64,000 bases of DNA, from contig SKTZ01000014.1 of assembly GCA_007122335.1 (NCBI GenBank), forward strand, positions 6,170-70,169, in the 5' to 3' direction. Of the stretch, positions 58,953 to 64,000 are shown piece after piece. The notes beneath the pieces were generated by a model that was given only the letters and a program-made list of their open reading frames with translations, did no database searches and was not told the origin of the DNA. Origin of the DNA: Bacillota bacterium. Its GTDB lineage: Bacteria; Bacillota; Halanaerobiia; B1SED10-174. The stretch's first letter is position 1, and each line of letters starts with the position of its first letter. Both the position numbers and the translations under genes were made by a program.

Positions 58953-59721
58953 AAATGCTTGTAATAATTGTGTTTTAGATGTTTTGCGGACTTTATACTT
59001 TTAGTAAGAATGAACAGAATTTCGAAAATAAATGGTTAATGGACAGCCTGAAAGTGAAAATAGGGTATGACCTCGTCTGCGGAGGTAGGTGTCTTTTTAA
59101 CAGTAATACTGGACCAACCATAATAAAAAAACCCACAGAACAAGGCTTGAGAGTAAATACCTGTTTGGTGGGAGCTCTTGGCTTCAAATTTACGGGGAGG
59201 AAATTTCAGGGCTCGTCCAAGATTTACTTACATATATAGAGCGAATAATATTTACGGAAAAGTGTGTTAATAAAGGGTTTATAGCCATCGGTTAGCAAGG
59301 GATAATAAACATAACTTCCAGCATGTCCGCTGTTTTATAATACTTATCAAAATTCCGGGCGGTAATTGGCCGGATATTATCATATTAAGCAACTGATTTG
59401 CCTTCTTTGGGTAGCCGGATGATAATGATGATTATTTAATAACATTTTCTGATACGCTATAGAATTCTATTGCATGTGAAAGAGCTGAGCGAACAATCAT
59501 AAGTCTTTCGTTAACATACCTGATGTAATTGTGATTTTTTGTTGTTATTTTAGAGGGATGGAGGGTAAAATGACTGATCGAAGAGGCAGGTAGGGAAGGG
59601 GTTAATCTAAATCAGTAATGGGTATATTTGTTAGGTAAAGAGACAGGAAAAGGGAGTAGAGTCTGGGTAAACAGAAAACCTTTAGAAGTTATGTAACTGA
59701 CCCTTTATCTATTTGAAGGGA

Positions 59722-60675
59722 CTACAGGGGTTTTCTTGGCTTTTTCAAGCATAGCTCAATTAGATCGCTGACGTTTGCTGTTCCCACACACATCACTTTG
59801 TCTGCCCCGCCCCAATAGATTTTTACTGTGCCATCTTTTTCAGGGACTGCCCCACAGGTAAACACCACATTATGCACATATCCGGTTAACTCCCAGGGGT
59901 CTTCAGGTTCAAGGATCCATTCATCAGCTACCCCGAGAATCCGCGATGGATCCCTCAGATCATGAAGCATTGCTCCAAGTCTGTAAACAGCTCCGTCCAT
60001 GGTGCGAAAGACCCCATGATAGATGTGCAGCCAGCCGCTATCGGTTCTGAAAGGGGTAGCTCCGGGGCCAATTTTCATTTCATCCCAATGGTAGGTTTCT
60101 GGTTTGACAATCAACTTTGAGTCTCCCCAGTGAATTAAATCGGGAGAATAGGAAATCCAGATGGACCAGGGGTTGATTTCCGTATGGGGACGATCCAGGC
60201 GGACATAACGTCCAGCAAACTTTTCTGGGAAAAGAACTACGTTACGCTGGTCTGCCTGTGTAATAAGAGAGATCCTTTCCACTGTTTCAAAATCCCGAGT
60301 TTTGGCTAAAGCAATCCTTACCCCGTGCTTGGAATAGGCACTGTATGTAATGAAGAAATCCTCATCTATTTTGCAGATTCTGGGGTCTTCAATACCATAT
60401 TTCTCATATTCAGCAAAAATGCTTTCTTGGGCCGGAGTCATAAAAGGCTTGGACTTGACCGCGAACCGGTAACCGTCTGAACTTTCTGCTATTCCCAGAA
60501 TAGAACGCCCGTTATGAAGATGTGACCGAAAAATCATCAAATAGCGCCCATCTGTCTTGATTACTCCAGCGTTGTGCACCGTAACTACCGGGTATGGCAC
60601 ATCGTTTTTGGTGAGGATGGGATTTTTTTTATATCTCTTAAGAATTGGTTCCCGTTTTTGCACAATTAACAACAT
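59722..60675 (-). CDS. glycoside hydrolase family 130 protein (beta-mannoside phosphorylase-like)
   Basis: 317-aa ORF with GH130/DUF377 hallmarks (EDPRI, YSAYS, WGGAD near the C-terminus, five-bladed propeller pattern). Confidence 0.8.
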   Translation of the reverse strand: MLLIVQKREPILKRYKKNPILTKNDVPYPVVTVHNAGVIKTDGRYLMIFRSHLHNGRSILGIAESSDGYRFAVKSKPFMTPAQESIFAEYEKYGIEDPRICKIDEDFFITYSAYSKHGVRIALAKTRDFETVERISLITQADQRNVVLFPEKFAGRYVRLDRPHTEINPWSIWISYSPDLIHWGDSKLIVKPETYHWDEMKIGPGATPFRTDSGWLHIYHGVFRTMDGAVYRLGAMLHDLRDPSRILGVADEWILEPEDPWELTGYVHNVVFTCGAVPEKDGTVKIYWGGADKVMCVGTANVSDLIELCLKKPRKPL

Positions 60676-60705: not shown

Positions 60706-61719
60706 TTAAGTTTTTTCTATTATCCGCCGGTATACTGACAGATAATTTTCCACCATTTGATCTTGTGAGAATTTTTCTTCTACTACTCTCCTGCACTTAT
60801 GACGTGATATGGTTTTTATATTCCCTATTGCATCTACTGCAGAAGAAACATCGTTAACAAGAAAGCCGTTTTCGCCATCACTAATTAACTCCGGCATCGA
60901 GCCTTTGTTAAAAGCCACCACCGGTGTTCCACAGGCGTTGGCTTCCACAACAGACAAGCCGAAAGGCTCATTAAAATTGATTGAATGGATAAAACCAAGG
61001 GCACTCCCTAATAACTTATCTCTCAACTCGGGACCGACGGGACCTACAAACTTGACCTGGTCATCGTCAAGAAAAGGTTCAATTTGTTCTTTGAAATAAG
61101 CCTCATCCTGAATAATTCCGGCCATGATCAGCTTCATGCCCGCTTTACGGGCAATCTGAATTGCTTCACCGGCACCTTTATCGTGATGGATGCGCCCTAA
61201 GAAAAGCAGATAATCTTCAGGGGTTTCCTTAAACGTAAAGTTCTCAATATCGATACCATGATAAACAGTATCGATGTAGTTCAGTTCTGGTGAGCGATCG
61301 GCGTTGCTAATAGACACATAAAAAGTTGTGTCGTTATACTTCTTGTAAACGGGAATAATTTTCAAACTGGAAAAACCGTGGATAGTTGTTAGGACAGGCG
61401 TTTTTGTAAGACTTGAGTAGGTAAGTGGCAAAAAGTCGAAATGGTTATGGATTAGATCAAAATTTTCTGCCCTTTCAAATACCTCAGATATATGAAGACT
61501 CTCCCATACCTTGATATCAAAAGACCTGTCCTCCTCATAGGGGTGTGGCACTACAGCATGGAGCTTTCCCTTTGTGACTGAATCAGCTGTGGCAAACAAT
61601 GTAACATCTATCCCTCTCTTAACAAGCCCTTCTGTGATTAATGAAACTACCCGTTCCCACGGCCCATATTTCCGGGGCGGGGTCCTCCAGGCTATAGGAG
61701 AAAGCATGGCTATTTTCAT
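60706..61719 (-). CDS. glycosyltransferase family 4 (GT-B, retaining) protein
   Basis: 337-aa ORF with an N-terminal IAWRTPPRKYGPWERVV motif and a C-terminal E-x7-E region (EPFGLSVVEANACGTPVV) typical of GT4. Confidence 0.75.
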   Translation of the reverse strand: MKIAMLSPIAWRTPPRKYGPWERVVSLITEGLVKRGIDVTLFATADSVTKGKLHAVVPHPYEEDRSFDIKVWESLHISEVFERAENFDLIHNHFDFLPLTYSSLTKTPVLTTIHGFSSLKIIPVYKKYNDTTFYVSISNADRSPELNYIDTVYHGIDIENFTFKETPEDYLLFLGRIHHDKGAGEAIQIARKAGMKLIMAGIIQDEAYFKEQIEPFLDDDQVKFVGPVGPELRDKLLGSALGFIHSINFNEPFGLSVVEANACGTPVVAFNKGSMPELISDGENGFLVNDVSSAVDAIGNIKTISRHKCRRVVEEKFSQDQMVENYLSVYRRIIEKT

Positions 61720-61781
61720 TTAATATATTCCTCCTTCCTAGAAAAAAATTATGATTTCTCCCCTAAGGCAGAGGCCGCTTC

Positions 61782-64000
61782 TTATTTACCGCGGTAACGG
61801 GAGGGAATAAGCGTCGAAACACTGGCGGTAGCGACGCCGATTACTGTGTCTGCTCCGCCGTAATAAACCAGAATTTCATCGTCTTCATCCAAGACGTTTT
61901 TGTCAAGGAGGGGGACGGCACCGCAGGTGAAGACCACGTTTGGCACCCAGCTCTCTCCGGAAACGCCTATCTCGTAAGATGTATCCGGTTCCAGGATGGG
62001 ATTGGGAGAGCGGTAGATAAGCTTGGCCGGGTCATCTAAAGAGGTAAGGAAAACACCGAGCCGGTATCGCAACCCGTAGTCCACTCCATGGTAGATATGA
62101 AGCCAGCCGAAGCGGGTTTTCAAAGGCTGGGCACCTGCTCCGATCTTGATCGCATCCCACATCATTCCGGAACGTGAACCCATAATAATCTTGTGGCCTT
62201 CCCGGGGCCATGGGGTGTCGAAGGTGGGAGAGTAAGTTACCCAAATACTGGGAGCGATACGATGGTACATGGCTAACTTACCGTTAAATCTTTCCGGGAA
62301 TAAGACGGCATCCTTATTGGAAAAACCGGGAAAAACCAATCCGTGGCGGTGCCAGTGCTGCCAGCGCTGGTGGATTAGATCGTCCTCGGCGATAGATGCC
62401 AGGGCGATTTGAGGGGTAACTCCGTCGTAGGCGGTGTAAAGCATGTAGATGCGGCCTTCGATAGCGATAAGGCGGGGGTCTTCGCAGCCCATTTTTTCAC
62501 TTTCATGGGCGGGAGCGAAAACCGGTTCGGGCAGCCGTTCGTCCACGCGCAGACCGTTTTTGCTTAAAGCCAGGCCAATACGGGAAATGCCGTCCTCACC
62601 AACAGCCCGGTAGAAGATGTGAACATCCCCATTGACACGAATGGCGCCGCAGTTTAAAACATATTTAGACTCCCAATTACTATCTGCGATTGGGGTTAGG
62701 ATAGGATTGAAATCGGAACGAACCAGTTTGCCCGCGGGAGGTAGTTCTTTGTCCATATTCTGTTCAACAATAACAGCCGCCCTGTCGGAATGGGCTCCAA
62801 GGAGCATCACGGCCAGGTCTTCATTTTCTTTACCTTGTCCCATCAGTTCAGCGATTTTTGGAAAAATGTTTTCGCGTTTTCCTCCCACTTGCTCATAGCA
62901 GCGGTAAAAAAGTTCGGCACTGAACCATCTCCGCTCTACCATGAGGGAAAGGGGGGAAGGTATGCCTTTGCCGCCTTTAAAGCTGTAACTGGCCCAACTC
63001 CACAGGGAGCAGGTGACAAAATGGCCATCAGGAAGGGTTATACCTAAGTGGTATACTGAGGCCATTAGTGCAAGGCGTTTGCGGAACCTTACCGTGTCCG
63101 GGTCTGCAGAGCCCCAGTCCTGATTGGTAATTTCCAGAAGTTTGTCTCTAAGGGTTTGCTGCTGAAGGTTTTCAAAAATACTGTGGGCAGAAAACATGTG
63201 ATAACCCGAGTGCCCTTCAATGGAATTTACCACCTTTTGGCCGAAGTCTTTGCCTGAATTGTTTTTAAAGGATTCCCAGATGACGCCGAACTGCTGTGCG
63301 TCGATGATGTTTTTTAAAATTATGGTCAGGAAACGAGCCTTGGGGAAACTACCGCCGCTCTCCTTACGGAGATAACTGATGACGACACGGCTGGTGAGAT
63401 GGTTCAGGGATGAAGATTCCCGCATGCCTGCTAAGGCGGGGAAATCTAGATAACTGACGAATAAAGGGCGGATGGGGGACAGTTCAAAATGTTCCGGTCG
63501 CAGGTTTTCGCGCAGCCACTCGTTGTTCCAGGCACTGTACCGAGCGGGCTCGGACCAGGTGGAGAGGGCTAGAACATCCAAAGGATTGTGGTTGGCCAGG
63601 AGTTCATCGGTATTGCGGTAACCCCAAAGGGTAATAAGGTTGCGGGGCGGTTGTTTCCGCAGCAGCCGTTCCGCAACTTCTTCTTTCAGAGAGAAGCTGA
63701 TAGGGGTGGGATAGAGATTAAAAATCCTTTCTGCCACCTGTTGAATGCCTGAGCTGGTGTGTAAGTCACCAGGCAAAAGGATAGTGTCCAAACCTTTTTC
63801 TACTTCTTCCATCAGTTCTTTGATGGCCTGGCCTAGCTTTTCAAAGCCGTCCTGGGGAGAAAGGTCTAACTGACGGCGGGCGAAGCCTTCAAACCCTTCT
63901 TTGTATTCTTTCAGCAGTTGTTCGTAGATTTCTGATACCCGGGCGGTTTTGCCTGAGGCTGAACGGACTGTGTGGGGCAGTATGATGGGAACGCCGGGGA
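61782..64000 (-). CDS. large fusion protein: unknown N-terminal domain (at least 490 aa) + C-terminal GH130 domain; 5' end beyond window
   Basis: The ORF track lists 61782-63812, but the same frame stays open (62 more sense codons, no stop) to the window edge, so the true start is upstream of 64000. The C-terminal roughly 300 aa is clearly GH130 (EDPRLIA, YTAYDG, YYGGADTV). The N-terminal region has no family recognised by inspection. Confidence 0.7.
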   Translation of the reverse strand, partial: PGVPIILPHTVRSASGKTARVSEIYEQLLKEYKEGFEGFARRQLDLSPQDGFEKLGQAIKELMEEVEKGLDTILLPGDLHTSSGIQQVAERIFNLYPTPISFSLKEEVAERLLRKQPPRNLITLWGYRNTDELLANHNPLDVLALSTWSEPARYSAWNNEWLRENLRPEHFELSPIRPLFVSYLDFPALAGMRESSSLNHLTSRVVISYLRKESGGSFPKARFLTIILKNIIDAQQFGVIWESFKNNSGKDFGQKVVNSIEGHSGYHMFSAHSIFENLQQQTLRDKLLEITNQDWGSADPDTVRFRKRLALMASVYHLGITLPDGHFVTCSLWSWASYSFKGGKGIPSPLSLMVERRWFSAELFYRCYEQVGGKRENIFPKIAELMGQGKENEDLAVMLLGAHSDRAAVIVEQNMDKELPPAGKLVRSDFNPILTPIADSNWESKYVLNCGAIRVNGDVHIFYRAVGEDGISRIGLALSKNGLRVDERLPEPVFAPAHESEKMGCEDPRLIAIEGRIYMLYTAYDGVTPQIALASIAEDDLIHQRWQHWHRHGLVFPGFSNKDAVLFPERFNGKLAMYHRIAPSIWVTYSPTFDTPWPREGHKIIMGSRSGMMWDAIKIGAGAQPLKTRFGWLHIYHGVDYGLRYRLGVFLTSLDDPAKLIYRSPNPILEPDTSYEIGVSGESWVPNVVFTCGAVPLLDKNVLDEDDEILVYYGGADTVIGVATASVSTLIPSRYRGK

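Follow-up and report, generated by a model that had tools for sequence, protein, structure and literature searches.

A GH130 mannoside phosphorylase-like module joined to a conserved domain outside described families in a Bacillota gene

Introduction

Phosphorylases of glycoside hydrolase (GH) family 130 serve beta-mannoside synthesis without nucleotide sugars and are normally single-domain proteins: more than 99% of the family is monomodular, multimodular sequences made up 6 of 1592 CAZy entries in 2018, and a few multimodular entries had already been listed as 'GH130-GT81' (Li et al. 2020, PMC7660257). Here we describe a gene that departs from this pattern, located at the end of a 64,000-nucleotide stretch of contig SKTZ01000014.1 (positions 6,170 to 70,169, forward strand; Bacillota bacterium, assembly GCA_007122335.1), the whole of which is hereafter called the window. 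An earlier reading of the nucleotide letters, hereafter the sequence-only reading, had flagged the gene as an atypical fusion of a C-terminal GH130 module with an unassigned N-terminal domain of at least 490 aa, cut by the window edge; the in-window part of that N-terminal region is the domain that we call X.

A Thermoanaerobacter cluster of GH130, ManC and GT4 genes provides a precedent for the gene neighborhood considered below (PMC4264767). In the phosphorylase Teth514_1788, the mannose-recognition residues of the -1 subsite are N28, D92 and D281, equivalent to N73, D131 and D344 of BfMGP (Chiku et al., PMC4264767), and E91 is a glutamate that replaces the tyrosine of beta-1,4 enzymes (PMC4264767), the same glutamate being named as a beta-1,2 determinant by Ladeveze et al. 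(PMC12814180). Every beta-1,2 GH130 phosphorylase tested has weak GDP-mannose transferase activity as well (PMC12814180), and phosphate is bound by three basic residues in GH130 phosphorylases (PMC4599007). On the side of glycosyl-glycerate synthesis, the metal ligands of mannosylglycerate synthase (MgS) are Asp102, the second aspartate of its DXD motif, and His217 (PMC2581804).

An uninterrupted frame reaches the window edge

On the minus strand, the frame runs from position 63998 to a TAA stop through 738 sense codons and zero stops and leaves the window at its edge, just as the sequence-only reading had it; both peptide strings quoted there are found verbatim in the translated frame.

61782..61784, minus strand: TAA stop codon of the fusion gene, read from the sequence
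61785..62726, minus strand: GH130 module, fragment residues 425-738 (PF04041, NCBIfam and PDB matches)
62727..63998, minus strand: domain X, fragment residues 1-424, equal to residues 461-884 of a 1198-aa ortholog (no family match; AlphaFold2 model)

Three full-length, colinear orthologs, 68-88% identical, place this fragment within a longer protein: L001 (1198 aa) and L002 (1191 aa), both from a scan of one genome per species, and L015 (1191 aa), from a single-protein search of metagenomes. The fragment matches the L001 protein from residue 461 to its last, 1198, with 88.5% identity and 0 gaps, domain junction included, and some 460 N-terminal residues are therefore missing from the window. 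By the same alignment, the ATG at 63812, where an open reading frame listing starts the gene (61782..63812, 676 aa), is an internal methionine, and we rejected it as the true start. Judged from these orthologs, the complete gene is one of about 1,200 codons and three modules: a GT-A-like glycosyltransferase (GT) module that lies off-window, X and GH130. Truncation by the window edge is thereby confirmed, and the proposed size of the unassigned part needs correction: the NCBIfam GH130 match starts at fragment residue 424, so that the window shows about 424 unassigned residues, and 490 is exceeded only in the complete protein, where the region ahead of GH130 measures about 885 aa. The proposed N-terminal domain is likewise real but not single, as it comprises the 424-aa helical domain plus the off-window GT-A-fold module of 460 aa. 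An exact 48-mer search of metagenome contigs for the window's own upstream sequence gave no match.

Relatives of the gene in two indel-rich contigs, L003 and L005, are broken into several short gene calls, a pattern that would suit an assembly or sequencing artefact fusing two ordinary genes in the window. Against such an artefact stand the intact 1191-1198 aa orthologs from three independent assemblies, the same architecture in at least 13 clusters at 50% identity, the gap-free alignment over the domain junction, and purifying selection on both parts, the ratio of nonsynonymous to synonymous substitution rates (dN/dS) between the window and L001 being 0.13 for the unassigned part and 0.07 for GH130. 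An artefact is thus scarcely credible; no frameshift or sequencing error of the kind that the sequence-only reading had warned of was found, and intact orthologs, gap-free junction and purifying selection exclude a frameshift for practical purposes. Indeed, an uninterrupted big gene followed by the same two genes, a GT4 glycosyltransferase and a second GH130, is found at four loci: the window, L001, L002 and L015.

The 7.3-kb contig of L001 (JAUSPR010000152.1) is labelled as a metagenome-assembled genome of a Thermoplasmata archaeon, yet holds the closest ortholog and the three-gene operon. It is probably mis-binned, because the other genes of the window (pcrA, ligA, gatA, gatB, in that order) look Bacillota-like.

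Domain X is conserved, well folded in prediction and without described relatives

Judged from its conservation and its predicted structure, X is a well-folded domain of about 420 aa, under purifying selection and outside every described family and solved structure. The AlphaFold2 (AF2) model, which draws on 13 relatives besides the window sequence, has a predicted local distance difference test score (pLDDT) of 84.6, with 90 or more at 244 residues, and a predicted template-modelling score (pTM) of 0.85; it is mostly helical, with few short strands and two long N-terminal helices. The first nine or so residues (PGVPIILPH) form the junction to the off-window GT-A-like module. Within the fused family, the blocks WSWASYSFKGG and SAHSIFE are strongly conserved, and the conserved set includes P117-P118, W241, S270, H272, E276, Y316, D324, F327, W335 and E355, of which the following are placed on the window:

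63645-63650, minus strand: P117-P118 of X, conserved
63183-63185, minus strand: H272 of X, conserved
63171-63173, minus strand: E276 of X, conserved
63027-63029, minus strand: D324 of X, conserved
62934-62936, minus strand: E355 of X, conserved

Searches of Pfam and NCBIfam gave no match to X, and both single-sequence and profile searches of the PDB, made with X and also with the whole N-terminal 887 aa, returned chance matches only. Foldseek comparison of the X model reached at best an E-value of 0.04 and a template-modelling (TM) score of ~0.1 against the PDB and gave no match in the viral BFVD library, while a consensus of weak Pfam hits over 14 X domains and 66 stand-alone relatives revealed no recurrent family. 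The sequence-only reading, which could place no motif in this region and proposed a Foldseek check, is thus borne out for the in-window part, which has neither a profile match nor a PDB fold match; the match to a common glycosyltransferase family that it had named as the contrary outcome arises off-window, as a GT-A fold recognized by structure only, and does not touch the flagged part.

Three specific assignments of X were considered and rejected: an (alpha/alpha)6 glycosidase barrel, for which Foldseek against the PDB gave no supporting fold match; an HD phosphohydrolase, the sole HD-domain match having an E-value of ~1 and a TM score of 0.13-0.16; and an internal duplication of the N-terminal module, for which HHalign aligns the shared 9-residue junction alone.

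X recurs in fused and stand-alone proteins

A word-indexed search of 5.8 billion proteins found 13 relatives of X, and an exhaustive profile search of 1.84 billion representatives found 346 at E <= 1e-3, 42 of them at E <= 1e-30. Architectures were scored on the best 150 of the 346 with local hidden Markov models and Pfam. The full order of N-terminal module (N), X and GH130 occurs in at least 13 clusters at 50% identity, with the source labels Bacillota/Dethiobacteria and Dehalococcoidia, so that further large GH130 proteins, which the sequence-only reading had proposed to look for, do exist. N-X alone makes up P0020, P0038, P0040 and P0049; N-X precedes a TreT-like GT4 in P0023 and P0053, Syntrophaceae by source label; and P0031 has the order GH130-GH130-X. 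The third module thus varies between GH130, TreT-like GT4 and none, and N-X is the constant core of the family.

The same profile of X finds many stand-alone proteins of 390-440 aa at E-values of 1e-17 to 1e-8, and HHalign of the X alignment against 66 such proteins gives a probability of 99.87% and an E-value of 1.2e-31 over 344 columns, nearly all of both. These stand-alone relatives of about 420 aa themselves have no Pfam, NCBIfam or PDB match. Their gene contexts fall into two kinds. On three contigs of the candidate phyla radiation (CPR), one of them labelled Candidatus Harrisonbacteria, an X-like gene lies directly after a PfkB-family kinase gene, and the pair sits inside an operon of RpiB, Rpe, a split transketolase and a class II aldolase that has no transaldolase; the CPR X-like protein is a candidate for an unfilled central-carbon step. 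In polysaccharide-type clusters (three loci, two clusters), the genes run in the order 2-hydroxyacid dehydrogenase, NTP_transferase, X-like protein and long aminotransferase, and one or other end of each of the three loci is occupied by a TagF-like glycerophosphotransferase. At a further locus, L008, the NTP_transferase is fused to the X-like protein (P0064), and no TagF-like gene was seen there.

L006 6001-7269, L009 6001-7266 and L010 6001-7263: CPR stand-alone X homologs that follow the PfkB kinase, with a 4-nt overlap in L010
L012 3049-4272, L013/L014 5001-6203 and L008 6001-7965: second X-like subfamily, polysaccharide-type clusters

Further fusions of X join DHH/RecJ-like and LOG domains. 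The stand-alone genes and these varied fusions show X to be an autonomous unit, found with partners that act on phosphorylated small molecules or on nucleotide-activated donors.

Several members are unusual. P0008, at L004 (2226..>12199), is a divergent homolog without GH130, and the gene call after it, of 6489 aa, contains Glycos_transf_1, TreT_GT1, several methyltransferase domains, CN_hydrolase and more, being either a giant multidomain protein or a merged call. In P0003 (731 aa), X gives way near residue 560 to a sequence resembling copper amine oxidase (PF01179), and the contig looks chimeric; P0029 (1416 aa) shows a partial internal duplication of X; and P0034 (3140 aa) has N-X-GH130 embedded within it.

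These data bear on two accounts of X that differ from the phosphate-ester proposal set out in the Discussion. Its mostly helical model with two long N-terminal helices, the very few polar residues that stay invariant over the wider family, and a constant placement, either flanked by two glycosyl-transfer modules or following the GT-A module, would suit a non-catalytic helical spacer, an oligomerization platform or an allosteric sensor that places the GT-A-like and GH130/GT4 modules; GH130 enzymes and mannosylglycerate synthase are moreover oligomeric, with helical parts mediating assembly (PMC12814180, PMC2581804). We consider such a structural role possible though doubtful, since X is homologous over its whole length to autonomous proteins encoded by separate genes in metabolic operons, some of these relatives are joined to enzymes of unrelated kinds (NTP_transferase, DHH, LOG) in a pattern commoner for an enzyme or ligand-binding protein than for a linker, and the conserved WSWASYSFKGG and SAHSIFE blocks, together with the dN/dS of 0.13, argue for constraint beyond spacing.

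The second account, which follows the sequence-only reading in its suggestion of a carbohydrate-binding, transferase or hydrolase module, sees in X a carbohydrate-active domain, either a new glycosidase or transglycosylase or a sugar-binding domain with conserved carboxylates and aromatics, in line with a conserved set in the fused family that is rich in W241, Y316, W335, F327, E276, D324 and E355 and with the constant association of X with glycosyl-transfer modules. This is distinctly unlikely: Pfam, PDB profile searches and Foldseek show no likeness of X to any GH, GT or carbohydrate-binding module family or fold, the aromatics are not conserved in the stand-alone family, and stand-alone relatives lie near PfkB kinases in pentose-phosphate/glycolysis operons or near nucleotidyltransferases, which suggests phosphorylated small molecules rather than glycans.

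The GH130 module is of the beta-1,2-mannoside phosphorylase type

The GH130 part shows nothing unusual. As the sequence-only reading had placed it, it lies at the C-terminal end, where PF04041 matches fragment residues 445-730 (model positions 39-314 of 320) with 175.5 bits against a cut-off of 26 and an E-value of 1.7e-51. The NCBIfam model for beta-1,2-mannobiose phosphorylase (NF052550) scores 246.9 bits, below its equivalog cut-off of 450; we therefore name the module beta-1,2-mannoside-phosphorylase-like, a name that does not fix chain length or aglycone. The closest PDB entries are 9fj8, a 1,2-beta-oligomannan phosphorylase (E 1.6e-58), and 7fip, a beta-1,2-mannobiose phosphorylase (E 4.5e-55), both aligned over their full length at about 40% identity. 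The Asn/Asp/Asp set of the -1 subsite is kept as N449, D507 and D717, and the glutamate right before the catalytic aspartate that marks the beta-1,2-specific, GH130_6-like phosphorylases is kept as E506:

62652-62654, minus strand: N449, equivalent to Teth514_1788 N28 (alignment)
62478-62483, minus strand: E506-D507, equivalent to Teth514_1788 E91-D92, motif GCEDPR (alignment)
61848-61850, minus strand: D717, equivalent to Teth514_1788 D281 (alignment)

K562, R580 and H637, in the motifs NKD, HR and YHG, retain basic residues common to both Thermoanaerobacter phosphorylases. These are candidates for the three phosphate ligands of GH130 phosphorylases. On this sequence evidence, the assignment of the module to GH130 is solid, and its conserved residues mark it as a five-bladed-propeller enzyme of beta-1,2-mannoside phosphorylase type.

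The Glu-Asp pair is, however, characteristic of what was formerly the 'GH130_NC' group, some of whose members are hydrolases (PMC4264767, PMC4599007), and this, the weak GDP-mannose transferase activity of all tested beta-1,2 phosphorylases (PMC12814180) and the NF052550 score under the equivalog cut-off could together point to a beta-mannosidase or to an enzyme acting chiefly as a GDP-mannose-dependent mannosyltransferase. We find either very unlikely, as the nearest characterized relatives are two phosphorylases with the same glutamate in both, the basic residues shared by phosphorylases are retained, and the NCBIfam beta-1,2-mannosidase model scores far lower, at just 69.9 bits. GH130 hydrolases are, in addition, typically secreted (PMC4599007), whereas no signal peptide was found in the orthologs L001 and L002.

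The off-window N-terminal module resembles mannosylglycerate synthase in predicted structure

Pfam and NCBIfam searches of the orthologs gave no match to the N-terminal module, a profile search of the module against the PDB found nothing, and weak Glycos_transf_2 matches appeared in 4 of 20 members (best E 0.0038). The AF2 model of this module in ortholog P0014, built from 20 aligned sequences, has a pLDDT of 85.5 and matches Rhodothermus marinus mannosylglycerate synthase (2y4m/2bo4/2y4k) by Foldseek with E-values of 1.7e-10 to 1.5e-9, a probability of 1.0 and target-normalized TM scores of 0.64-0.74 over about 440 columns; further matches include GtrB and Mycobacterium tuberculosis GpgS (3e26, E 1.9e-5). 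On the strength of this model, the module is a retaining-type GT-A domain plus a C-terminal helical domain, near GT78/GT81.

Most family members carry x-A-D after the strand corresponding to that of the DXD motif and K-x-H after a later strand, and other clades keep EAD and K-x-H. In the window's clade, represented in the motif comparison by P0014, P0015, P0016 and P0019, with L001/L002 added by inspection, x-A-D is replaced by EPR, DPN or EPG and K-x-H by KPK, KPQ or KPR. Because both presumed metal ligands are replaced, the GT-A module of this clade has probably lost its catalytic activity or changed it, as read from the motifs.

The big gene heads an operon-like cluster

The three genes follow each other on the minus strand with intergenic gaps of 62 nt (big gene to GT4) and 30 nt (GT4 to GH130), a layout that looks like an operon with the big gene first.

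61720..61781, minus strand: spacer of 62 nt with a GGAGG ribosome-binding site ~9 nt before the ATG at 61719 (sequence)
60706..61719, minus strand: GT4 glycosyltransferase, 337 aa (Pfam Glycos_transf_1, Glyco_trans_1_4, Glyco_transf_4)
59722..60675, minus strand: stand-alone GH130, 317 aa, third operon gene (PF04041, E 2.9e-58)
L002 3671-6094 (equivalents in L003 and L005), minus strand: divergent neighbor of the big gene, ~800-930 aa, its N-terminal half resembling PimA-type GDP-mannose mannosyltransferases

The orthologous loci L002, L003 and L005 carry, upstream of the big gene, this divergent long PimA-like GT4 together with ManC and PGM/PMM; the C-terminal ~370 aa of the PimA-like protein have no Pfam match and a weak PDB match to YPO2471 (E 9e-6). 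The flanks examined showed neither a transporter nor a secreted glycosidase.

The stand-alone GH130 finds TM1225 first (E 2.2e-57) and Teth514_1788 next in the PDB. TM1225 is grouped with beta-1,4 enzymes, yet the stand-alone GH130 has the beta-1,2-type Glu-Asp pair (GIEDPR) plus a QRN motif. Judging from these sequences, it and the fused module may not share the same specificity. Beyond the stand-alone GH130, an 86-aa open reading frame (58979-59239, plus strand) lies between a convergent rumA-like gene and the operon end.

Discussion

Taken together, we think it fairly probable that the window gene is the C-terminal 738 residues of a cytoplasmic three-module enzyme of about 1,200 aa, the first gene of an operon for an intracellular mannoside, which the operon would both build and recycle. 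In such a scheme, the GH130 module would reversibly cut or make a beta-1,2-mannosidic bond (beta-mannoside + inorganic phosphate <-> aglycone + alpha-mannose-1-phosphate), the N-X part would make, bind or process the aglycone or primer, which could be a glycosyl-glycerate-type solute or a short mannan, and the adjoining GT4 enzymes, with the ManC and PMM of the orthologous loci, would supply GDP-mannose and the alpha-mannosyl steps.

For X itself our leading guess, a tentative one, is a phosphate-ester-processing step, phosphatase-like or mutase-like, to which we give about the same odds as to a non-catalytic scaffold or sensor. Compatible-solute pathways include bifunctional synthase-phosphatase enzymes, namely the MpgS-MpgP enzyme MgsD, SPS-SPP and TPS-TPP, and it is the logic of these fusions, together with the proteins and domains found beside or fused to relatives of X (PfkB kinases, sugar-phosphate nucleotidyltransferases, DHH, LOG), that suggests this guess.

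Several points weigh against this picture. The 460-aa N-terminal module is absent from the window and is read from orthologs at 68-88% identity, and the mapping of its motifs onto D102 and H217 of the synthase rests on motif and secondary-structure position, without residue-level superposition. In X, few residues are invariant over the wider family (the PP pair, an H-x3-E motif, D324 and E355), conservation analysis reveals no recognizable phosphatase, mutase or kinase signature, and MAFFT and HHalign disagree on the stand-alone counterpart of D324. A canonical PMM/PGM is already encoded in the orthologous clusters, which weakens the mutase idea, and the sub-cut-off NF052550 score bears on the exact substrate of GH130.

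In its boldest form, which strikes us as rather unlikely, the proposal would make X the founder of an enzyme superfamily not described before, whose fold might be new as well and whose substrates would be phosphorylated sugars or sugar acids, with stand-alone members filling steps beside the CPR PfkB kinases and the polysaccharide-cluster nucleotidyltransferases; GT-A, X and GH130 would then form a single-polypeptide machine that makes and recycles an undescribed cytoplasmic beta-mannoside. In that case the machine might yield a bacterial reserve resembling mannogen, or else a mannosyl-glycosyl-glycerate solute.

The fusion is rare, and databases already list it under the names 'hypothetical protein' and 'predicted GH43/DUF377 family glycosyl hydrolase'. 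The novelty lies in recognizing a conserved, well-folded domain of 420 aa that has no relative among described families or in the PDB, that is obligately linked to an MgS-like module, and that is akin to a widespread family of unannotated proteins. Although rare, the fused family is phylogenetically spread, with Bacillota, Dehalococcoidia and Syntrophaceae source labels, and the joining of GH130 through X to an MgS-like module points to an intracellular mannoside pathway not yet characterized. X also offers a handle on the larger unannotated family that CPR bacteria, in whose metabolism some steps are still unfilled, carry in their central-carbon operons, and a function for X would annotate hundreds of 'hypothetical' proteins together.

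Comparison with known systems

Rhodothermus marinus mannosylglycerate synthase (GT78, 2bo4/2y4m) and GpgS (GT81, 3e26) share the GT-A plus helical fold predicted for the N-terminal module of the orthologs, at a sequence identity of 12-17% that leaves the relationship invisible to sequence profiles. Many members of the fused family keep x-A-D and K-x-H at the metal-ligand positions of these enzymes, whereas the window's clade has both replaced, and MgS and GpgS themselves lack the X and GH130 modules. The synthase-phosphatase enzymes likewise fuse a glycosyl-glycerate-type glycosyltransferase to a module that acts on its product, an analogy that is speculative here; X has no similarity to HAD or histidine phosphatases.

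Our literature searches for combinations of GT81 or mannosylglycerate with GH130 found nothing specific. The 'GH130-GT81' entries of CAZy probably have the same architecture as the present protein, as judged from the module label; the survey that counts them neither describes these entries nor mentions a domain of ~420 aa between the modules (PMC7660257), and its figures agree with the sequence-only reading that the fusion is atypical.

The phosphorylases of Thermoanaerobacter sp. X-514 (9fj8, 7fip) are the nearest counterparts of the GH130 module, which, like them, has the equivalents of N28, E91, D92 and D281 in a full-length alignment. In that organism, a pair of GH130 genes is clustered with a GT4 and a mannose-1-phosphate guanylyltransferase, the latter being found here in the orthologous loci, and the Thermoanaerobacter cluster differs in its ABC transporter and GH5, neither of which was seen in the flanks examined here. 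The Thermoanaerobacter enzymes are, finally, single-module proteins of about 300 aa, whereas here GH130 makes up the final third of a protein about 1,200 aa long.

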